DNA of 64,000 nt from Escherichia phage vB_EcoM_VR26, in the sequence record NC_028957.1, one strand, 5' to 3'. Shown piece by piece: positions 2,729-60,092 of this stretch. The position numbers and the translations under genes are program-made. Position 1 is the first letter of the stretch; every line of letters begins with the position of its first letter. The notes below the pieces were generated by a model that did no database searches, had not been told where the DNA came from, and saw only the letters and a program-made list of their open reading frames with translations.

Positions 2729-2757
2729 ATCTTAACACAATTTTTGTGGCTTGTACA
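2729..2757 (-). promoter_or_regulatory. early promoter (TGTACA -35-like, 17 nt, TAAGAT -10)
   Basis: Same element pair recurs at 12359..12387. Confidence 0.45.
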
Positions 2758-2761
2758 TAAT

Positions 2762-2784
2762 AAAAAAGGACCCGAAGGTCCTTT
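2762..2784 (-). terminator. rho-independent terminator (UUCG tetraloop)
   Basis: aggacc-cgaa-ggtcct hairpin flanked by A-run on plus strand, giving a U-tract on the minus-strand transcript. Confidence 0.55.
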
Positions 2785-7184: not shown

Positions 7185-7213
7185 ATTATACTCTGGCCCC
7201 AAGAGTTTGTACA
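7185..7213 (-). promoter_or_regulatory. early promoter (TGTACA, 17 nt, TATAAT)
   Basis: Perfect TATAAT at 7185-7190; GTGTACA at 7208-7213; upstream of 6651..7142. Confidence 0.55.
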
Positions 7214-8229: not shown

Positions 8230-8260
8230 TTTGTTTTCCTCATCAGTAGTTGATGAGATG

Positions 8261-8289
8261 ATTATGTCTCTTTCCATTGGCCTTGTACA
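8261..8289 (-). promoter_or_regulatory. early promoter (TGTACA, 17 nt, CATAAT) with ATCAACTACTGATGAGG leader
   Basis: Leader motif 8239-8258 precedes true ATG at 8227-8229. Confidence 0.5.
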
Positions 8290-11577: not shown

Positions 11578-11624
11578 GATATTTTTCTCATCTTACGGAC
11601 GATTAAATAACTCAGTATGGAATC

Positions 11625-11652
11625 ATTATACACTATTCATCTTTTATGTACA
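11625..11652 (-). promoter_or_regulatory. early promoter (TGTACA, TATAAT) with CCATACTGAGTTA leader
   Basis: Upstream of 10831..11577. Confidence 0.5.
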
Positions 11653-12327: not shown

Positions 12328-12358
12328 TTTATTATCCTCATCAGTAGTTGATAGGAAC

Positions 12359-12387
12359 ATCTTAACATGTCTTATTATTCTTGTACA
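12359..12387 (-). promoter_or_regulatory. early promoter (TGTACA, 17 nt, TAAGAT) with ATCAACTACTGATGAGG leader
   Basis: Inside 3' end of 12375..12932; drives 11713..12327. Confidence 0.45.
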
Positions 12388-12932
12388 CAGTCAAGAACAT
12401 AATAATCACCAACAAATCCAGCATCAACTATCACGAATTTCTGGTCAACTGGAACAAACCATTCAAGCTCAGAATCAATCATGTCCATATATTCTTCACG
12501 CCTTAACGTTGCTGCCTGTGCGGAACCAGATGCAGTATTGAAGAATTCCAGCGGAACGTCAAGCGCGAGCTTACGCATCGCATCATGATAACAAAAAGCC
12601 TCGGTCTGATTTAATCTGACAATAGTCCTTGTCACATATTCCATTGCAGCAAAATCCCTGGCAATACCATAGTCTTCTGTAAAGGAAGTTATTCTTCCAA
12701 ATTCAAAAGGTTGCATTAATTCTTTTGCTTCATCTAACAACTCAATCTCTTGATGGGTAACCCCGCGATACAAGACTGTATCAGGTACAGATAACCTTGA
12801 CTTGATGATTGAGTTGACGTTTGAATGCAAGGTTTTGTCAACCTTTGATGTGCGACATTCAAACAATGAAGCTATCTCCATTTCGCTAAATTTTAACTGG
12901 TTGGGTTCGGTATCAGATTTGATGATGTTCAT
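12375..12932 (-). CDS. ADP-ribosyltransferase (ModA/ModB family)
   Basis: 185 aa; LYRGV, SFTEDYGIARDF and EEYMD motifs; paralogous to 11713..12327. Confidence 0.7.
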   Translation of the reverse strand: MNIIKSDTEPNQLKFSEMEIASLFECRTSKVDKTLHSNVNSIIKSRLSVPDTVLYRGVTHQEIELLDEAKELMQPFEFGRITSFTEDYGIARDFAAMEYVTRTIVRLNQTEAFCYHDAMRKLALDVPLEFFNTASGSAQAATLRREEYMDMIDSELEWFVPVDQKFVIVDAGFVGDYYVLDCVQE

Positions 12933-12988
12933 AATGGCCTCTCTGTTGTAAGAAAGACCATTATGTCATTAGGAGGGGAGTAAGTAAA

Positions 12989-18872: not shown

Positions 18873-19166
18873 TTATTCACCTGTAACTTCTTTGACGATG
18901 TTTTCATTTTCAAAGTTAGGGTCACAATACAACACGTAATTATACTGCATAACCCCACCAGATGCCAACTGGTCAGATACTTCTTTGACCTTGTTTGGTT
19001 GGTCACGTTTAGTGATGTTCATGATGTCCGCGTAAATCTGGTGCTCAACTGCTTCCTGGTCAGCGGTCATTGACCACTCGCATAAGTCTTTATCATAACC
19101 AGCAGTAACTGGAGCTGCGTGACACGAAGCGAGGACTAAGATTGCTGCGATAGATAACTTTTTCAT
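18873..19166 (-). CDS. sp: Spackle periplasmic protein
   Basis: 97 aa; signal peptide; GYDKDLCEWSMTADQ and GGVMQYNYVLYCD match recalled T4 Sp. Confidence 0.85.
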   Translation of the reverse strand: MKKLSIAAILVLASCHAAPVTAGYDKDLCEWSMTADQEAVEHQIYADIMNITKRDQPNKVKEVSDQLASGGVMQYNYVLYCDPNFENENIVKEVTGE

Positions 19167-19224
19167 TTGAATCTCCTTAGTAGTTGATAGGGATAATATA
19201 CTGCATTATCCCCTTGTTGTACAC

Positions 19225-19791
19225 TTATTTTTCGTTTAAACGAATTTTTTGTTGATGTTGCTTTGCTGCAATAATATATTTTGCTTTTTCTAATGCCAAT
19301 TGTTTTTCAGTTCCATCCATCACCATAAAGTAAATCTGCCCAGCAACAGTTTGTGGAATTGTGCTTGGTAAATTATCTAAAAAAACTTTTATATTTTTTT
19401 GATGAATTTCATAAGCATTAAAACATTTTTTATAATTTATATAATAAGGGTGTACACCCCAAAATAATATTTTGTTTCCATGTATTGTGTGTTGCTTCAT
19501 TTCAACAGAAACTGGATAATCATTAATTATTATCCGTTTAGATACCAATTTATCAAATGAATATTCCCATTGTTCGGATGTAATTATATTTCCATTTAAT
19601 TTTACAATTTTATCACTTTTTTCAACTATATAATTACCACACACATATTTTGAGTAACCAGGCCTTGAAAATTTTATTGTTTCTTCCGACAATAATTCTG
19701 CTTTTTGCATATAACTATCATATGTACTAATAGAATATGCAGGTTTGGCAAGGCCGCACAATGCAAAAGCAATAATGAATAATTTTTTCAT
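19225..19791 (-). CDS. secreted protein, unknown function
   Basis: 188 aa; N-terminal signal peptide MKKLFIIAFALCGLAKPAYS; markedly AT-rich. Confidence 0.5.
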   Translation of the reverse strand: MKKLFIIAFALCGLAKPAYSISTYDSYMQKAELLSEETIKFSRPGYSKYVCGNYIVEKSDKIVKLNGNIITSEQWEYSFDKLVSKRIIINDYPVSVEMKQHTIHGNKILFWGVHPYYINYKKCFNAYEIHQKNIKVFLDNLPSTIPQTVAGQIYFMVMDGTEKQLALEKAKYIIAAKQHQQKIRLNEK

Positions 19792-20082
19792 TTAGATTTC
19801 CTCACAAAAGGCCCATTCAGCGTGATAAACTGTTGCGCCAGGGGTTGCATTCATTTGAACCAAGTCTACAGGTGAAATCACACGATATAGCTTAGGTTCT
19901 CCTCCAATTGAACGTGCTGCACGTCCAGCATAAATCTTCGCCAAACCAATGTCTTCAGTAAAGAAAACACGATTTAGATTTTTCTTACGACCAGTTTCTG
20001 ACAGGACTCCAGTTTCTTCTGGAGGACAAAGCATGTTATTGATATTTGCCAGGCTGCATGACCCATGATAGAAAGTTTTCAT
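19792..20082 (-). CDS. hypothetical protein
   Basis: 96 aa; TATAAT and TGTACA promoter upstream. Confidence 0.45.
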   Translation of the reverse strand: MKTFYHGSCSLANINNMLCPPEETGVLSETGRKKNLNRVFFTEDIGLAKIYAGRAARSIGGEPKLYRVISPVDLVQMNATPGATVYHAEWAFCEEI

Positions 20083-20108
20083 TTTATTCTCCAGTAGTTG
20101 ATAGGGTC

Positions 20109-20146
20109 ATTATACTATAAAGAAAAAGGGGTGTACACCCCTTTTA
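20109..20146 (-). promoter_or_regulatory. early promoter whose -35 TGTACA lies in terminator palindrome GGGGTGTACACCCC
   Basis: TATAAT 20109-20114; TGTACA 20132-20137; palindrome 20128-20141 followed by U-run. Confidence 0.5.
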
Positions 20147-20150
20147 TCAC

Positions 20151-20453
20151 TTATGCCAACTCATAATTGTGCATTGTCAGACAACGAATTTTTCCAGTAG
20201 TTGGGTGCATAACAGTCACACTAATTGTGCAATCATCACACACGTTAACAAAAGGTTCCGCGATAACAAATACTTCACCGCCTGCCAACAGATACTCACG
20301 AAGGCTTGAGCGAACCGCTGAAGGGTGAACATCGCTTTTGAGCTTTATTAATTTACCGGTTTGAATGCCAGATGCGATAAGAGCAGCACAGGTTTCATCA
20401 CGGCGAGCGAATTGTCCAAAGTAGTAACGATTCATGTCGGTTTGATTAAACAT
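20151..20453 (-). CDS. hypothetical protein
   Basis: 100 aa; AGGAAA SD; promoter cassette upstream. Confidence 0.45.
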   Translation of the reverse strand: MFNQTDMNRYYFGQFARRDETCAALIASGIQTGKLIKLKSDVHPSAVRSSLREYLLAGGEVFVIAEPFVNVCDDCTISVTVMHPTTGKIRCLTMHNYELA

Positions 20454-20504
20454 ATGGTTTTCCTTTTTAGTGGGTTGGTTTATTGTGTAACTCAGTATGG
20501 AATC

Positions 20505-20533
20505 ATTATGCCCTAGTAGAATTCAGTTGTACA
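20505..20533 (-). promoter_or_regulatory. early promoter (TGTACA, 17 nt, CATAAT) with CCATACTGAGTTAC leader
   Basis: Immediately after gene 41 terminator; upstream of 20151..20453. Confidence 0.5.
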
Positions 20534-20540
20534 CCCTTTT

Positions 20541-20569
20541 TAAAATAAAAAAGGACCCGAAGGTCCTTG
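20541..20569 (-). terminator. rho-independent terminator after gene 41
   Basis: aggacc-cgaa-ggtcct directly after gene 41 stop, followed by U-run. Confidence 0.6.
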
Positions 20570-22009
20570 TTAGAATTTCATCTGCGCCGCGAGGTCGTCC
20601 AGGTCGCTCCTGTTGACCCTGGTTTGTCTATTCATTTCAGCCTGACGATTCATCTCACCAGTGGCTTCTTTCACCGTAGGGCCTTGTTTAGGAGCTGAAT
20701 CATCATCAACCTCATACCAGCGCTGATTACCTTTCTTAACACCCATCTTGAATTTATTATAGTAGTTCTTATCGCCATAACGAGACTTAAGCTGTTTGAT
20801 TAACTGCAGTCCCATTTGAGCGAATTCTTCGGTCTCAACAACACCCAACATAAAGTCGGCCGTGTGAGCAATACCAAAGGATTCTGCGATGTCAGCCATG
20901 TCAATCTCAGCTGCAACGTTTGCACCCCTGGTTGTCTGTGCTGCAGTCCACAGGACCACATTTTTCTCGACCGCCAGACCACGAAGTTCTTCTGCAACCA
21001 TCTTAATCAGGCCGTAACTGTTTTCGGTAAACGTTTTCAGTCTTGAGCTTGCACAGATTGCCAGGTAGTCAACAATAATCACATCCGGCACAAATCCTTG
21101 CTTCAGTTTGTACTCGTTCAGTAATGCACGGAACGTATCCGCATGAGCACCACCAGTTGGATATTGTTTTATCTTCAGAGTTCCAAGAGTCCCGGAAGCG
21201 CGCCATTTTTCCATCTTACTTTTGTATTCTGCCCATGATATATGACCTTCATCAATATCATCCAGAGATACATCCAGCAAGTTGGCATCAATACGTTTGG
21301 CACATACTTCTTCAGCCATTTCCATGCTTATATAAAGAACGTTATGACCAGTCTGAAGATAGTCAGCCGCTAACGAACAAAGTCCCAGAGATTTGCCGAC
21401 GTTTGTTCCGGCCAGTAAAACGTTCTCTGTTCCATACTCAACTCCACCCTTCGTGATTTTATTCAGGATGTTAATACGGAACGGAACTTTCTTCGATTTG
21501 TTTAGATAAGTCTGGAATCGAGCTTCGTAATCGTTTAACCAGTCATGACCCAGAGCAGAGTCAAAACAAATAGACAATGCATCGCGCATGATGTCAGGAA
21601 TAGCACCAATATCCGGGATTCGTTTATCACGTTTATCTTTCGGAAGTTCGGCATTACTCTGAATTTCGATAATCCTGGATGTTGCATTGAACATCGCAGA
21701 CTTCTGCACATACTTCTCGGTTTCTTTGACCAGCCATTCCTGGTCTTCTGGAGTATCAACCAGGACTCCTAAGAGTTTCTTTGTACCTTCGTATTCAACT
21801 TCAGAAAGGTCAGAACCGTCGAGTGCGATATCAAGTGCAGTCTTAGTTGGAACTGCTTGATATTCTTTTACATGTTCATTAATCGTATTAAAAAGGGTCT
21901 TCGCAGGACCCTTTTCAAAATATGTGTTATTCAGATATGGCCAGACTTTAACAAAATATTCCTTGTTAAAGAGTAGCTGGGATAAAATAGTTTCTACCAC
22001 TTCCACCAC
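20570..22009 (-). CDS. 41: replicative DNA helicase (DnaB-like)
   Basis: 479 aa; Walker A AGTNVGKS; N-terminus MVEVVETILSQLLF resembles recalled T4 gp41. Confidence 0.9.
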   Translation of the reverse strand: MVEVVETILSQLLFNKEYFVKVWPYLNNTYFEKGPAKTLFNTINEHVKEYQAVPTKTALDIALDGSDLSEVEYEGTKKLLGVLVDTPEDQEWLVKETEKYVQKSAMFNATSRIIEIQSNAELPKDKRDKRIPDIGAIPDIMRDALSICFDSALGHDWLNDYEARFQTYLNKSKKVPFRINILNKITKGGVEYGTENVLLAGTNVGKSLGLCSLAADYLQTGHNVLYISMEMAEEVCAKRIDANLLDVSLDDIDEGHISWAEYKSKMEKWRASGTLGTLKIKQYPTGGAHADTFRALLNEYKLKQGFVPDVIIVDYLAICASSRLKTFTENSYGLIKMVAEELRGLAVEKNVVLWTAAQTTRGANVAAEIDMADIAESFGIAHTADFMLGVVETEEFAQMGLQLIKQLKSRYGDKNYYNKFKMGVKKGNQRWYEVDDDSAPKQGPTVKEATGEMNRQAEMNRQTRVNRSDLDDLAAQMKF

Positions 22010-24642: not shown

Positions 24643-24719
24643 TTTAATATCCTCAAGTTTGTCTAGTCATCAGTAGTTGATGAAAGAATAATACGGCAAT
24701 CCATTGCCGTTGTAAACAC

Positions 24720-30169: not shown

Positions 30170-31053
30170 TTCATTTTCCTATTAACATAATAATTTGACC
30201 AGGACCGGATTGCACCCTGATAATTTTCATCATTAAACCCATGTTCAATGGCGTGTTTTCTAAACGTAATATACCCCGGTTGTCCTAAAGCATTCCACAA
30301 TGTTTTAAGTTCATCTTCATACTGCAACCAGGTTCCCCTTGCTTTGGATTTCCTAAATTTTTCTTTAAATTCAGGACTAGCATTTCTTTCAGTTGCTCGT
30401 TTTGAAGCCTTTATTCTATTATCTGAATTATTCCAATATTCAGTAATTGATTTTAAATATTTTTCGTATACTTCAGATGTATTCATTATAGCTTTGAATT
30501 TTAAAGCATACTCGGCATCTTTATAACGATTTTTGACTTCAATAGACCTTGCTTGTCGAGCTTCGGCAGTCCAATATTCTTTTTGAAAGTCTTTAATTGC
30601 TTGAATGTGCTTATCCGAAATTGAGCAATCTTTACGAACACCAACATAATCAGATGTAAGTTCGGATGGATGCAATTTAACAACTTTACCTGTTTTCAAG
30701 TTTCGGTATGGAGCATATCCAGGAGCATCATACCGGCTTTGGTCGTGAGCATACGTTTTATTAAAGTACTTCTCATTGGTTACAGCTTTAACTGACATTT
30801 GAAAAATATTTTCTATTTTTCTTGGGTCCTGCTTTGTTTCCCCAATGATAGTAACGATATAGTCGCCGCTATCAATCAATTCATTATACAACTTAGTGTA
30901 TTTTGAATTCGGCGAACCTGTATAAATTTTATTATTTTTGTCGAGAATATTTTGACCGTTAAATGTCGCATCAACCTTTGAACCAATATAATAACAAGGG
31001 AATTCGTTATTTTGTTCCCTTGTTATAAAGGTTATTTTATAAATCAAATTCAC
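30166..31053 (-). CDS. GIY-YIG homing endonuclease (Seg-like)
   Basis: 295 aa; N-terminal IYKITFI...YYIGS GIY-YIG motif; AT-rich; stop overlaps gene 45 start (ATGA). Confidence 0.6.
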   Translation of the reverse strand: MNLIYKITFITREQNNEFPCYYIGSKVDATFNGQNILDKNNKIYTGSPNSKYTKLYNELIDSGDYIVTIIGETKQDPRKIENIFQMSVKAVTNEKYFNKTYAHDQSRYDAPGYAPYRNLKTGKVVKLHPSELTSDYVGVRKDCSISDKHIQAIKDFQKEYWTAEARQARSIEVKNRYKDAEYALKFKAIMNTSEVYEKYLKSITEYWNNSDNRIKASKRATERNASPEFKEKFRKSKARGTWLQYEDELKTLWNALGQPGYITFRKHAIEHGFNDENYQGAIRSWSNYYVNRKMK

Positions 31054-31475
31054 GCAACAACTGCCATTTGTTTGCGGATAGCTTCCGGAAGAGATTCAAT
31101 ATACTCTGGAAGTTGCGCAGCAATAATAGAACCAGCTTGGACCAGGTGGTCATCGAAGTCAACACAGTAATCATCTTCGAGACGTTCGGAGCCGTCACGG
31201 TCGATAACCAGTTTAGCACCAGCTGCCAGAGATTCGGTGTAATGACGTTGCATCAGTTCAATCCACTTATCAGATACATCAGTATCGATAACACCATACA
31301 GCATAAATTTAACTTCTTGAGGAAGTGATTTCAGACGGGTAGCCGATACTTCATCACATGCCAGGACCCAGGATTTACGGATGCGGTTTTGGTTATGTGG
31401 GTTAGCGTCAGTGCGGATGGTTTTAACTTGGATATCTTTAGCAGTTACGTTGTTCATAATATTCTCTCTATTCAA
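31050..31475 (-). CDS. hypothetical protein (rpbA position)
   Basis: 141-aa ORF between 45 and 46; synteny only. Confidence 0.4.
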   Translation of the reverse strand: MNRENIMNNVTAKDIQVKTIRTDANPHNQNRIRKSWVLACDEVSATRLKSLPQEVKFMLYGVIDTDVSDKWIELMQRHYTESLAAGAKLVIDRDGSERLEDDYCVDFDDHLVQAGSIIAAQLPEYIESLPEAIRKQMAVVA

Positions 31476-31480
31476 TTCAA

Positions 31481-31732
31481 TTAATCAAAGTATTCATATG
31501 CGAACCAGGCTTTGTGTCTGTTCGCGATTATTTTAACATATTCTTCACCGAAAGCGTTTTGCAAGTCACGTTCAGTAACTAGGTGTTCATCTTTCGAAAA
31601 GGTATTAACTAACACATATCGTTTAATTTCGGGGACAGCTAGTAAATGCTGCCCGGTTAAGAAGTCAGCCATAGCAGCCTCTATTATAACATCCTTGTTT
31701 AAAGCATTATTCCATAACAGTGAATCGACCAA
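31481..31732 (-). CDS. hypothetical protein
   Basis: 83-aa ORF. Confidence 0.4.
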   Translation of the reverse strand: MVDSLLWNNALNKDVIIEAAMADFLTGQHLLAVPEIKRYVLVNTFSKDEHLVTERDLQNAFGEEYVKIIANRHKAWFAYEYFD

Positions 31733-33401
31733 CTTTTTTCATCTGGAGATGTTGCCCGTATGCTTCCGGGTCATGGTCTCGGTGACTGATAATAAAGATG
31801 TTGGTGTCTTCCAATTTGTTCAGGATGGTAGCAATTGCTTTAACACCCTCTACATCAGTAGCTGAATCGAAAACTTCGTCCAGAATCAATGTGTTGATAT
31901 TGACACCAGATACTTTTGCAGCAATATCACGCCATGTAAACAGCAATGCAATATCGATACGAGCTTTTTCACCCTGGCTAAATGATGCATAGCTAAAGTC
32001 TTCACGCCCACGAGATTTAATCGTTTCGTTGAATTCTTCATCAAGCGTAAAACTATAATCAGCTTCCATAACTTTCAGATAAGCATTAATTTGCTTATTA
32101 AAGATAGGAATATATTTCTTAATAATCGCGCCTTTGATTCCAGAATCTTTCAACATATCCGTTAAGATACCACGTTGATATTTTTCCATAACAAGGTTTG
32201 ATTTCTGTTTGACTATTTTATCAAGCTGGTCTTGAAGCGTTTTAATATCATCGGCATGGTCAATGAATTCAGACTTAGCTTGTTCAATTAACGTCTTAAC
32301 CTTTTTAGCTTTATCCACAGTCTGGATTAACGTTTGTTTCTTAGTTTGAATCTCTTGAGCTATTGTACGTTGGTTTTGTCTTGCTTCAGCGTACGCATCA
32401 AATCGTTCCTGAATGGAGGCCTGGAGAGCTTTATGGCTATCAGACTCACGATTATACTCTTCAATCTTTGTCTCAATCCTGGGGACTATGGAGTCTCCTG
32501 GCGACAATTGACTCAAACACGTTTGGCAACAACCGCCTTTCTCGTACAAACCGATTACCTTACGGAAGCTATCGATTTTCGATTTAATCAGGAACGATTC
32601 TTGCTTGACTTTCGTCAGTTCCTGTTCAGGGTCTTCACCCAAAATAATCTCGGTCAATCTTGTCGTTGCTTCATCAATCGTTGATTTGATATCACGAGCT
32701 TCTGAAGCCAAATCATCATACATCGTTTGCAGTCGTAGCAGATTATCACCGGATAATTTTTTCTGCTTTTCAACGTTGTCCTGGTAGATTTTAATCTGTT
32801 GCACAACACCATCATGCTGAACGTCAATCACCTGGATTTGACTGTTGACTTCACGGATAAGAGATTTGTTGAGCTTATCCATATCAGCCAGTACAGAAAC
32901 CTCTAGCAGGTCTTCGACGAGTTTTCTTCTTGCAGGAGTGGATAGGCCCATGAAAGGGGTATATCCAGCTGTGCCGAGTACGACAATCTGTTTGAAACTG
33001 GCGTATGACATTCCGATAAGCTGTTCAAATTCTGCTTGGAAGTCTTTACTGCTGGCAGATTCATCAAGACGTTCACCGCCACAAGAGATTTCAAAAACAT
33101 TGGGTTTTTGCCCACGTTTGATATAGTATTCTTTGCCATCATATTCCATCCACAATTCAACGAGCATATCTTTTTTGTTGCTCGAGTTAATCAACTGCCC
33201 TTTCTTAACATCACGAAAAGGCTTACCAAACAATGCAAATGTAACGGCTTCAAGGAAGGTTGATTTACCTGCACCGTTCTTACCGGTCACCAGAGTTTTC
33301 TGGACCTTATCGAGTTGAACCGTAATTGCTTGTGCTCCAACTGACATAATATTTTTATAGATAACTTTCTTTAGCTTAAAAGTCTTCATCGTAATAAGCA
33401 T
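31707..33401 (-). CDS. 46: recombination nuclease ATPase subunit (Rad50/SbcC-like)
   Basis: 564 aa; Walker A GKNGAGKST; collinear with recalled T4 gp46. Confidence 0.9.
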   Translation of the reverse strand: MLITMKTFKLKKVIYKNIMSVGAQAITVQLDKVQKTLVTGKNGAGKSTFLEAVTFALFGKPFRDVKKGQLINSSNKKDMLVELWMEYDGKEYYIKRGQKPNVFEISCGGERLDESASSKDFQAEFEQLIGMSYASFKQIVVLGTAGYTPFMGLSTPARRKLVEDLLEVSVLADMDKLNKSLIREVNSQIQVIDVQHDGVVQQIKIYQDNVEKQKKLSGDNLLRLQTMYDDLASEARDIKSTIDEATTRLTEIILGEDPEQELTKVKQESFLIKSKIDSFRKVIGLYEKGGCCQTCLSQLSPGDSIVPRIETKIEEYNRESDSHKALQASIQERFDAYAEARQNQRTIAQEIQTKKQTLIQTVDKAKKVKTLIEQAKSEFIDHADDIKTLQDQLDKIVKQKSNLVMEKYQRGILTDMLKDSGIKGAIIKKYIPIFNKQINAYLKVMEADYSFTLDEEFNETIKSRGREDFSYASFSQGEKARIDIALLFTWRDIAAKVSGVNINTLILDEVFDSATDVEGVKAIATILNKLEDTNIFIISHRDHDPEAYGQHLQMKKVGRFTVME

Positions 33402-37878: not shown

Positions 37879-38137
37879 TAAGATTTTTGATATACTGGAT
37901 ATCTTTGATACCCAAATCCAACTTAAGGTCTTCCAGACGTTCGCCCAGGGACAAAAAGGTTACATGCTTCCAATTTTTTATTGGGCAACAATAAGTCTTA
38001 GGACCATTTGCAATTTCAATATTCTTATCAGCGATGGTGAGAAAAATCAGACGCTCATCATCCAGATTAAGGGTAATGATATTTTTCATTGCGTGTAATT
38101 TAAGGCTCATGATTTGATTTCCTCTGCTACTGCACAA
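37862..38137 (-). CDS. hypothetical protein
   Basis: 91-aa ORF. Confidence 0.4.
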   Translation of the reverse strand: MCSSRGNQIMSLKLHAMKNIITLNLDDERLIFLTIADKNIEIANGPKTYCCPIKNWKHVTFLSLGERLEDLKLDLGIKDIQYIKNLIDANC

Positions 38138-38289
38138 AACACGCTACGGTCACACACCATCTGTGGGGCATCAGGCCAATTCAAAGGTTGATACCATACA
38201 TCCAGACTTGATATTTTAGTTACTTGAACAGGATAGCCATTTACAGAATAATACCGGTCAACTTTAATTTCTTTATCTTGAACAACCAT
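38107..38289 (-). CDS. hypothetical small protein
   Basis: 60 aa; ATG directly after conserved leader CATCAACTACTGATGAGGAAAAC. Confidence 0.5.
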   Translation of the reverse strand: MVVQDKEIKVDRYYSVNGYPVQVTKISSLDVWYQPLNWPDAPQMVCDRSVFCAVAEEIKS

Positions 38290-38320
38290 TTTGTTTTCCT
38301 CATCAGTAGTTGATGGGATA

Positions 38321-38360
38321 ATGATACATCATTCAAAGGGGCTTGTACACCCCTTTTTAA
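38321..38360 (-). promoter_or_regulatory. early promoter with TGTACA in hairpin loop, ATCAACTACTGATGAGG leader
   Basis: aaagggg-cttgtacac-cccttttt hairpin 38335-38360 after nrdH-like stop; leader runs into ATG at 38289. Confidence 0.5.
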
Positions 38361-38674
38361 TCTTCAATTAAGTCCTGGTCATACCCCAAGGATATCAGTT
38401 TTGTTTTAAAGGCAGGAATATTGGTCATTTTTTCATCATTGACAAAAATCACCGGGTAACGAATGTTAAGGGTAGGATATCCAGCACGCTTAGCCAGAGA
38501 CACGATTAAAGGCCTGTCATAAGCGATTTCAGAGCCTTGTTTGTTAAGGACTGAATAGAATGTATAGGGAAGGTTTAAGGAGCCCAGAAGGCTCCTGATG
38601 TGCATACAACCAGGGCATCGACCGACTTCTTCGGGAATGCCATAGATTTCAATTTTAGTCGAGTTTTGGCCCAC
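38357..38674 (-). CDS. glutaredoxin/thioredoxin-fold protein (NrdH-like)
   Basis: 105 aa; redox motif CPGC near N-terminus. Confidence 0.55.
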   Translation of the reverse strand: MGQNSTKIEIYGIPEEVGRCPGCMHIRSLLGSLNLPYTFYSVLNKQGSEIAYDRPLIVSLAKRAGYPTLNIRYPVIFVNDEKMTNIPAFKTKLISLGYDQDLIED

Positions 38675-45570: not shown

Positions 45571-45596
45571 TTTATTCTCCCGTTTGTTTGGTAACT

Positions 45597-45637
45597 CAGT
45601 ATAGGAACATTATGTCACGCTCCCATACTGGTGTACA
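45597..45637 (-). promoter_or_regulatory. early promoter with 10-bp inverted repeat bracketing the -10
   Basis: TGTACA 45632-45637; -10 45609-45614; arms cagtatagga (45597-45606) and tcccatactg (45621-45630), one mismatch. Confidence 0.5.
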
Positions 45638-46156: not shown

Positions 46157-46184
46157 TTTATTCTCCAGTTTTTATTTGGTAACT

Positions 46185-46225
46185 CAGTATGGGAACATTA
46201 TACGTCTATCCCATACTGATGTACA
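46185..46225 (-). promoter_or_regulatory. early promoter with perfect 10-bp inverted repeat bracketing the -10
   Basis: TGTACA 46220-46225; TATAAT 46197-46202; arms cagtatggga (46185-46194) and tcccatactg (46209-46218). Confidence 0.5.
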
Positions 46226-50686: not shown

Positions 50687-50754
50687 TGTATTCTCCTCAG
50701 TAGTTGATGGGATAATAGTACACCCTTTTGATGAGGATGTAAACCCCCTAAATG

Positions 50755-50784
50755 AAAAAAGGTCCACCCGAAGGCAGACCTTTT
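50755..50784 (-). terminator. rho-independent terminator
   Basis: ggtc...cgaa...gacc imperfect hairpin plus A6 run, directly after stop of 50788..51171. Confidence 0.5.
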
Positions 50785-57517: not shown

Positions 57518-57572
57518 GTTTGTTCTCCGTAGTTGATAGGGTCATTATAACCCTATCGTTTGGAGATGTAAA

Positions 57573-60033: not shown

Positions 60034-60092
60034 AATATTTTCCTCATTGATTGTGGGACCATTATGTCATAGCCCCATTTGGTTGTACACAC

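Follow-up and report, generated by a model that had tools for sequence, protein, structure and literature searches.

Promoter-early stem-loops (PeSLs) have been described in the T4-like phages RB49 and phi1 as intergenic cassettes of about 70-100 bp, in which a stop codon within an A/T-rich region is followed by a sigma70-type promoter (-35, N17, -10), a stem-loop that is often of the polyG...polyC kind, a Shine-Dalgarno sequence and an ATG (Arbiol et al. 2010, Genome Biol Evol 2:140, PMC2839356). They occur many times over in early or hyperplastic regions and flank small ORFs that have been gained or lost between close relatives. Five positional subclasses were distinguished, including one in which the stem-loop overlaps the -35 box. 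One PeSL stem-loop cut lacZ like rrnB T1, whole PeSLs drove about 13,000 Miller units, and one crossover was mapped to the loop of a PeSL stem-loop (PMC2839356). Recombination between cassettes, yielding mini-circles, is also among the features of PeSLs. PeSLs were later extended to the phage pairs T4/PST and KVP40/nt-1 (Comeau et al. 2014, Genome Biol Evol 6:1611, PMC4122927). The early promoters of T4 itself carry GTTTAC at -36 to -31, and those of its relatives prefer C at -3 to -1 (Nolan et al., PMC1524935); a strong -10 and an UP element belong to the same type (PMC2988021; PMC1524935).

Here we analysed two elements of this kind in a 64,000-nucleotide stretch of Escherichia phage vB_EcoM_VR26 (NC_028957.1), referred to below as the window. 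The window belongs to a T4-like coliphage, and by megablast its positions 19000-22000 are 97.5% identical to Escherichia phages vB_EcoM_VR25 and VR7 (Straboviridae, Tevenvirinae, Gaprivervirus), a lineage that lies outside the PeSL papers. The genes around site 1, namely uvsX, gp40, gp41 and small early ORFs, lie without exception on the minus strand, and the GC skew is negative throughout. Its upstream gene encodes a 100-residue protein like VR7 gp045 (phrog_17014; 20151-20453, stop codon TAA at 20151-20153) and its downstream gene a 96-residue protein like VR7 gp044 (phrog_2110; 19792-20082, ATG at 20080-20082). Site 2 lies between an nrdH-like glutaredoxin gene (38357-38674), whose TAA stop codon (38357-38359) shares bases with the A-run of the hairpin, and a gene for a 60-residue gp55.6-like protein (phrog_2283; 38107-38289, ATG at 38287-38289). 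As the flanking genes of both sites are on the minus strand, both elements are to be read as the reverse complement, and all features of the two sites given below are on that strand unless stated otherwise. In the region of site 1 the GenBank record of VR25 contains CDS features only.

The intergenic gap at site 1 is 68 nt and reads, in the sense direction, TAA, GTGAT, AAAAGGGG-TGTACA-CCCC-TTTTTCTTTATAG, TATAAT, GACCCTATCAACTACTGGAGAATAAA, ATG. The stem-loop is a perfect 22-nt palindrome, AAAAGGGGTGTACACCCCTTTT, at 20124-20145, with a 9-bp stem, a GUAC loop and a predicted energy of -11.6 kcal/mol for the stem-loop alone; folded with its flanks, the RNA reaches -13.6 kcal/mol (z=-3.55), and none of 200 shuffles was as stable. 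The -35 hexamer TGTACA (20132-20137), preceded by a G at -36 to give GTGTACA, sits at the apex of the hairpin. It is followed by a sense-strand T-run, TTTTTCTTT (20119-20127), within the 17-nt promoter spacer, and by the -10 hexamer TATAAT at 20109-20114. The 26-nt leader between the -10 and the ATG, gaCCCTATCAACTACTGGAGAATAAA (20083-20108), contains a repeated motif, ATCAACTACTG, at 20092-20102 and the Shine-Dalgarno sequence GGAG at 20089-20092. A sequence-only reading of the window had reported this palindrome and that of site 2 as terminator hairpins with the next promoter's -35 in their loop. Both sequences are present, with the coordinates one base off, and TGTACA does lie at the apex, except that at site 1 the outer T and A pair with each other to close the stem, leaving GUAC as the loop.

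At site 2 the gap is 67 nt. On the plus strand the element reads AAAGGGG-CTTGTACA-CCCC-TTTTT (38335-38358), and its sense order is GAAGAT-TAA, overlapping AAAAAGGGG-TGTACA-AGCCCC-TTTGAATGATG, then TATCAT, TATCCCATCAACTACTGATGAGGAAAACAAA and ATG. The stem-loop AAAGGGGU-GUACAA-GCCCCUUU (38335-38356) has 8 bp including one G-U pair, and its RNA folds at -12.4 kcal/mol (z=-3.07; 2 of 200 shuffles as stable). The -35 hexamer TGTACA at 38344-38349 occupies the loop and the closing pair, and the -10 hexamer is TATCAT at 38321-38326. The spacer is again 17 nt, and the earlier statement that TGTACA stands at the right distance from the -10 thus holds at both sites. The leader tatCCCATCAACTACTGATGAGGAAAACAAA (38290-38320), which places the promoter 31 nt before the ATG, carries ATCAACTACTG at 38304-38314, and a small hairpin, CAUCA/UGAUG, adjoins its Shine-Dalgarno sequence GAGGA. 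An exact 16-mer search of IMG/VR returned only the VR25 contig and three unrelated contexts, one of them in a high-GC phage, and so carries no information on distribution; an Rfam scan of the whole window yielded no curated covariance model at the gathering threshold. A third candidate hairpin, GGGGTGTACACCC at 19447-19460, was rejected: it lies inside a coding sequence (FWGVHPYY), lacks a T-run and is no more stable than shuffled sequence (z=0.17).

The -35 hexamer of the two sites recurs across the window. TGTACA is found 35 times against 16.4 expected, a count reached by none of 100 shuffles. A generic sigma70 scan did not discriminate (55 promoter-like sites in the window, 53.7 in shuffled sequence), which means that a bare consensus match proves little; we therefore restricted promoter calls to -35/-10 pairs (spacer N16-18) directly before a minus-strand ORF start, mostly with one of two repeated leader motifs, ATCAACTACTG and CCATACTGAGTTA. 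This identified 19 early promoters in the 64 kb, each on the minus strand and immediately preceding the start of an ORF, with the consensus aaaa...G TGTACA a-N17-TATaAT gaTCCcATcaac. The -35 is TGTACA in 14 of them and TTTACA or TTTACT in the other five, and in the 14 the distance to the -10-like hexamer is 17 nt, apart from one promoter with 16 nt. The leader motif matched 11 times in the window against 1.09 expected, eight of the matches being on the minus strand in promoter leaders, and a further leader-motif count gave 4 matches against 0.04 expected. On these counts and positions, TGTACA (GTGTACA) is the early-promoter -35 box of this lineage. For annotation, TGTACA-N17-TATAAT with a ATCAACTACTG or CCATACTGAGTTA leader provides a ready early-promoter model for phages of the VR7, VR25 and SP18 type.

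Listing the best simple stems between -40 and +75 of each of the 19 promoters, which are named here by their -35 positions, placed the stem-loops before the promoter, on the -35, within the spacer, across the -10 or in the leader, five positions in all. Stem-loops upstream of the promoter accompany 2757, 20533 and 50743. The cassette after gp41 (20505-20568, minus strand) contains a canonical terminator, AAGGACCTTCGGGTCCTTTTTT, at 20551-20568, followed by 14 nt and TGTACA(20528-20533)-N17-CATAAT; its promoter also retains a half hairpin, AAAAAGGG, on the 5' side only, with no 3' arm. In the cassette at 2729-2784 (minus strand) a separate terminator, AAAGGACCTTCGGGTCCTTTTTT, ends 4 nt before the -35 TGTACA (2752-2757), and that at 50715-50783 (minus strand) combines a canonical upstream terminator with TTTACA-N17-TACTAT and a second stem in the spacer. 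Stems that straddle the -10 and have their 3' arm among the first transcribed bases are found at 7213, 19223, 45637, 46225, 57572 and 60089; they reach 14 bp and -21 kcal/mol, as in TGTACA-N17-CATAAT at 45597-45637 (minus strand). Many of the stems over the -10 or in the spacer lack any U-run. Leader stem-loops occur at 8289, 12988, 24716 (cassette 24688-24716, minus strand) and 38349. At 12988 (TTTACT-N17-CATAAT; 12930-12988, minus strand) the -10 region pairs, at -20 kcal/mol, with the Shine-Dalgarno sequence and ATG of the next gene. A stem-loop on the -35 is found at 20137 and 38349 and, in weak form, at 12387. With a strong -35 hairpin in only 2 of the 19 early promoters, the arrangement first noticed at sites 1 and 2 does not extend to a general rule of the genome.

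These cassettes share the layout of the RB49/phi1 PeSLs outlined above, from their length to the order of their signals. At both sites an early promoter precedes a co-oriented ORF; a stable GGGG...CCCC stem-loop (-11.6 and -12.4 kcal/mol) is centred on the -35; the stop codon lies in an A/T-rich region (TAA-GTGAT-AAAA... and GAT-TAA-AAA...); and GGAG or GAGGA and the ATG stand at the 3' end. The motif family is repeated and conserved through the window, with 19 cassettes in 64 kb. Differences from RB49/phi1 are that the -35 there is a near-perfect TTGACA rather than TGTACA, and that here the commonest stem position is over the -10, with stems on the -35 in the minority (2/19). The stems of nt-1, A3-4 G3-loop-C3 T3-4, resemble AAAAGGGG-loop-CCCCTTTT here. 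T4/PST likewise have composite terminator/promoter motifs next to indels (-35 TTTACW, N17, TAYWAT), but their stem-loops lie just upstream of the promoter (PMC4122927), whereas at sites 1 and 2 they enclose the -35. The likeness to T4 early promoters (PMC2988021; PMC1524935) covers the G at -36, the C-rich positions -3 to -1, the A/T-rich upstream region and the location before small early genes: GTGTAC matches GTTTAC at five of six positions, the -10 is TATAAT or TATCAT, and gaCCC or tatCCC precedes the presumed +1 A. The one difference in the -35 is at -34, which is G here and T in T4, and this G is what makes the hexamer TGTACA palindromic.

PeSLs are further characterized by their location at the boundaries of indels and replacements, and the same is seen here. 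In TH57, UPEC07 and ECML-359 the sequence shared with the window at site 1 is the cassette alone (query positions 115-187), from the first hairpin base to slightly beyond the ATG; there it follows gp41 at a distance of 7 nt, and the phrog_17014 gene is absent. The window, VR25, VR7 and SP18 have this additional ORF, with a cassette of its own, between gp41 and site 1. Elsewhere, dmd, 041 and 040 of VR25 are replaced in the window by a 188-residue ORF, and the edge of the replacement at 19231 adjoins the promoter at 19223. A replacement of the site 1 downstream gene in SP18-type phages was also considered, as the blastn match ends 7 nt into the ORF, and was rejected: the proteins are 79% identical and belong to the same PHROG. 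Taken with the layout, these comparisons make it probable that sites 1 and 2 are PeSL-type cassettes, each a composite of early promoter and stem-loop, and that they belong with those whose stem-loop overlaps the -35. Such an arrangement is a published subclass of a published cassette family and is therefore ordinary for this phage group; it leaves the general understanding of these phages unchanged, and it extends to another genus the PeSL picture of cassettes at the boundaries of gene gain and loss.

With the hexamer held fixed and the 15-nt flanks shuffled, an apex hairpin of -11.5 kcal/mol or lower arose with p=0.00135 per promoter. About 0.03 such hairpins would be expected among 19 promoters, and the two observed are thus unexpected. 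The stem of site 1 is GGGGT-GTAC-ACCCC in the alignment of the window with VR25, and GGGGC-TTACA-GCCCC in SP18, TH57 and ECML-359, the inner pair having changed from T-A to C-G. In the SP18 type the -35 reads CTTACA, and a compensating 1-nt deletion further on holds the spacer length at 17 nt; the double change together with this deletion indicates that stem and promoter geometry have both been maintained. We also compared the regions upstream of phrog_2110 homologues in IMG/VR. In Acinetobacter phage vB_AbaM_Kimel the region upstream of the homologous gene reads AAGGGAATCAGT-TTAC-ACTGGTTCCCTT-TTTGTGG-TATAAT, with GTTTACA at the apex of a 12-bp stem, TTTT after the stem and 17 nt to TATAAT. 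Since this stem is unrelated to that of site 1, the layout with the -35 in the loop has arisen at least twice. Judged by the shuffling statistic and these substitutions, the hairpins are selected and are not products of chance.

At the same junction, the terminator of Dhakavirus- and Mosigvirus-type phages has a UUCG loop and stands apart from the promoter, 8-14 nt before the -35, and in the group L028-L031 the terminator tail runs into the -35, giving a continuum across genera in which the terminator is separate, abutting or fused. The nrdH/55.6 junction was compared in annotated phage records, IMG/VR having given only two loci with gp55.6 relatives. The element is fused in Gapriverviruses; in RB69 a separate terminator directly follows nrdH and the promoter lies further on; and the Dhakaviruses JS10, IME08 and ESCO10 carry the promoter, GTTTACT...TATAGT, with no hairpin, which indicates that the hairpin is dispensable there. 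The sequence-only reading had the hairpin supplying TGTACA to the promoter. This runs against the distribution of the hexamer, which is the standard -35 in 14 of the 19 promoters and stands free of a surrounding hairpin in 12 of those 14, and against the hairpin-less form of the same nrdH/55.6 promoter in Dhakaviruses. It is the hairpin that is built around a promoter element already in place.

Terminator quality was assessed with a score of the d'Aubenton-Carafa type, combined with ViennaRNA energies, so that its absolute threshold is approximate; on this scale site 1 scored d=+16 in the sense direction, its SP18 version d=+29 and the Kimel element d=+4.5, compared with d=+25 to +41 for four canonical terminators of the window. 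Site 2 scored d=-21 in the sense direction, below the terminator threshold, and d=-9 in the antisense direction. The transcript of site 1 continues after GGGGU-GUAC-ACCCC with UUUUUCUUU, the combination of stem and U-rich tail expected of an intrinsic terminator, and a T-run follows the stem directly on the sense strand in site 1, SP18 and Kimel. At site 2 the sense tail is UUUGAAUGAUG, with only UUU, which falls short of an intrinsic terminator, and the five-T run that had been quoted for it is antisense; the proposed U-run on the transcript accordingly stands for site 1 and fails for site 2. By stem, tail and score, site 1 is a credible, moderately strong intrinsic terminator, and the terminator label for site 2 is weak. 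Site 1 resembles bidirectional intrinsic terminators in its G/C-rich stem, 4-nt loop, 3' T-run and 5' A-run; it differs from them in that no convergent gene needs the antisense direction and in that its release point would lie inside a promoter spacer. The idea of a compact device that insulates and restarts transcription within 60-70 bp is essentially right for site 1 and doubtful for site 2. Each of the two elements joins a stem-loop behind the upstream gene to a sigma70-type early promoter within about 67 bp, and relatives conserve the spacing and the -10 box as well as the leader and the hairpin. Insulate-and-restart parts of 67 bp could be useful in synthetic biology.

We propose that host sigma70 RNA polymerase would recognize GTGTACA, the 17-nt spacer and TATAAT or TATCAT, and would begin transcription with a short leader (ATCAACTACTG...GGAG/GAGGA...AUG) ahead of the small early gene that follows. 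Read-through from the upstream gene would form an RNA hairpin with the -35 hexamer as its loop. The promoter spacer would encode its 3' arm (CCCC) and U-run; the 5' arm and A-run would come from DNA just after the upstream stop codon (site 1) or overlapping it (site 2). Overlap of the two signals is possible since the sequence of a terminator loop is nearly free and a promoter spacer has mainly to be of the right length. The sites offer a clean natural case of two transcription signals in one 45-bp stretch, each signal's constrained part being housed in the free part of its partner. At site 1 the hairpin with UUUUUCUUU would act as a moderate intrinsic terminator or as an attenuator of read-through, in which case the downstream gene would depend on its own promoter. 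Given its poor U-run, the site 2 hairpin is more likely a weak attenuator or a structure protecting the 3' end. Promoter firing and termination themselves, like any role in recombination, are inferred.

Were the sites promoters only, the G4/C4 arms would be a scar or hot spot of PeSL-mediated recombination, or neutral sequence around a palindromic hexamer. Site 2, with no sense-strand U-run, and the same promoter in Dhakavirus, with no hairpin, are in keeping with this; the promoter at 20533 keeps the 5' half alone (AAAAAGGG-TGTACA), which is what a crossover at the -35, inside the element, would leave, and the loop of a PeSL stem-loop is the site of one mapped crossover (PMC2839356). Against it, the compensatory double change keeps the stem in SP18-type phages, a T-run directly follows the stem on the sense strand in site 1, SP18 and Kimel, flank shuffling rarely recreates such a stem (p=0.00135 per promoter), and a PeSL stem-loop terminates efficiently in vivo (PMC2839356), and we regard this explanation as unlikely. 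The converse, that the sites are terminators whose likeness to TGTACA-N17-TATAAT is incidental, would accord with the generic sigma70 scan (55 sites against 53.7), but the architecture of -35, -10 and leader occurs 19 times, on the coding strand only and directly before ORF starts. The leader motif is likewise in excess (11 against 1.09 expected, eight in minus-strand promoter leaders), the 17-nt spacing survives an indel in SP18, and Dhakavirus keeps the promoter and not the hairpin, all of which leave this view very improbable.

The conserved pairing also bears on whether the palindrome is a signal in the DNA itself, either a site bound by a dimeric regulator or a cruciform that modulates how sigma70 reaches the -35. 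The 22-nt palindrome of site 1, perfect and with the -35 at its centre, would fit this, as would TGTACA, itself palindromic and over-represented. Yet the stems differ by lineage with their pairing kept (GGGGT/ACCCC, GGGGC/GCCCC, AAGGGAATCAGT/ACTGGTTCCCTT), which is the signature of a structure and not of a sequence-specific protein site; the flanks of the 12 hairpin-less TGTACA promoters are not palindromic, their consensus being G-TGTACA-a, and the palindrome of site 2 is imperfect. A signal of this sort is hardly to be expected. A hairpin whose main role is to protect or define the 3' end of the processed upstream mRNA, as a barrier to 3' exonucleases and not through release of polymerase, would suit the stable stem and poor U-run of site 2 and the many PeSL-class stems over the -10 or in the spacer that have no U-run. 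The canonical U-runs at site 1 and in its relatives speak against it, and by sequence such a barrier looks the same as attenuation; as the main function of the hairpin we find it rather improbable. The reading we prefer remains that of PeSL-type cassettes combining an early promoter with a stem-loop, which at site 1 would terminate or attenuate read-through.

Counted from the next start site, RNA release at site 1 would fall at about -20 to -13, and terminating and promoter-bound polymerases would compete for the same DNA. This shared DNA makes an interplay conceivable in the form of occlusion, a roadblock or polymerase hand-over. The coupling of termination efficiency to promoter use, as originally suggested, is speculation. 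In a hand-over, core polymerase that was released, or retained on the DNA, at the U-run would already be positioned on the following early promoter and could re-initiate after sigma70 had rebound; the downstream promoter would then be fed by read-through instead of being occluded, and termination and initiation would be truly coupled. That a release point in the spacer of the next promoter is such a hand-over device, selected independently in Gaprivervirus and in Acinetobacter T4-like phages, is a conjecture to which we give little credence. Promoter and terminator signals are reported to coincide (bioRxiv 10.64898/2026.08.19.745784), and T7 class II terminators are reported to act as E. coli promoters (bioRxiv 10.64898/2026.02.12.705533). 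Both reports place initiation and termination signals on the same or adjacent DNA, as here, with other organisms and other signals.

The hairpin arms also bear on the promoters that they enclose. The A+T fraction in the 10 nt upstream of the -35 is 0.6 at sites 1 and 2, compared with 0.7-1.0 in most of the other promoters. Because the G4/C4 arms take the place of A/T-rich bases on either side of the -35, directly before it and in the first part of the spacer, they may weaken the promoters of both sites.

The early promoters of the VR26 lineage carry a -35 element of the form (G)TGTACA, which differs both from the GTTTAC(A) of T4 and from the TTGACA of the host. It is present at 14 sites in the window, five of which, all on the minus strand, are 7208-7213, 8284-8289, 11647-11652, 46220-46225 and 60084-60089. 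TGTACA as a hexamer is over-represented, with 35 occurrences in the window versus 16.4 expected. At 60084-60089, the palindromic hexamer is accompanied by CATAAT at 17 nt on the minus strand and by a perfect TATAAT at 17 nt on the plus strand (60055-60089). This region is possibly a divergent (antisense) promoter pair using one -35, or, the upstream region being A/T-rich, the plus-strand TATAAT may match by chance.

The promoter following gp41 (20528-20545) retains the 5' half of a hairpin (TTTTAAAAAGGG-TGTACA), with the 3' arm absent. The sequence to its left agrees with the single fused cassette found after gp41 in phages UPEC07 and TH57 (compared with positions 620-640 of the UPEC07 locus). 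Together, the half hairpin and this shared context would fit a crossover at the -35 that inserted the phrog_17014 ORF, which lies between gp41 and the cassette at 20124-20145. The promoter at 19218-19223 adjoins the edge, at 19231, of a gene replacement: dmd and two neighbouring ORFs of the close relative VR25 are replaced in the window by a 188-aa ORF (19225-19791, minus strand) whose N-terminus resembles a signal peptide and which matches no PHROG. No Dmd homologue was found by tblastn anywhere in the 64-kb window.

Upstream of a phrog_2110 homologue in Acinetobacter phage vB_AbaM_Kimel (MN732883.1, locus positions 473-512, within record coordinates 30803-31887), we found GTTTACA at the apex of a 12-bp stem that is followed by a TTTT run, and TATAAT separated from the -35 by 17 nt. 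This cassette is an independent instance of the design that places the -35 at a hairpin apex.

Strong stems of up to 14 bp and -21 kcal/mol straddle the -10 box, at 45597-45630 and near the -35 positions 46225, 57572, 60089, 19223 and 7213, their 3' arm lying within the first transcribed bases. These stems, which lack a U-run, correspond to the '-10 overlap' class of PeSL, the composite early-promoter/stem-loop cassette of T4-like phages, and are predicted to be able to form solely in upstream read-through RNA, not in the promoter's own transcript. On the minus strand, a -20 kcal/mol hairpin at 12930-12965 pairs the -10 region (CATAATGGTCTTTCT) of the promoter whose -35 lies at 12983-12988 with the Shine-Dalgarno sequence and start codon (AGAGAGGCCATTATG). 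The ribosome-binding site would be closed in read-through transcripts and open in promoter-proximal ones, an arrangement resembling what has been described for the control of translation of the T4 genes e and soc.

Two conserved leader families, both on the minus strand, begin directly after the -10. The first, CCcATCAACTACTG(A)(T)GAGGA, has eight copies (8244-8254, 12342-12352, 19178-19188, 20092-20102, 24671-24681, 38304-38314, 50698-50708 and 57527-57537) and its conservation extends to Mosigvirus and Tequatrovirus ahead of the homologous gene, as seen in the alignment of the 20124-20145 region across relatives; the second, CCATACTGAGTTAC, has four (11608-11620, 20488-20500, 45592-45604 and 46180-46192). 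Possible roles include promoter escape, translation or a RegB/RNase context. A small leader hairpin at 8238-8258 (CUCAUCA-ACUAC-UGAUGAG, -8.3 kcal/mol) overlaps the Shine-Dalgarno GAGG with its 3' arm, as do those at 24668-24684 and 38301-38315.
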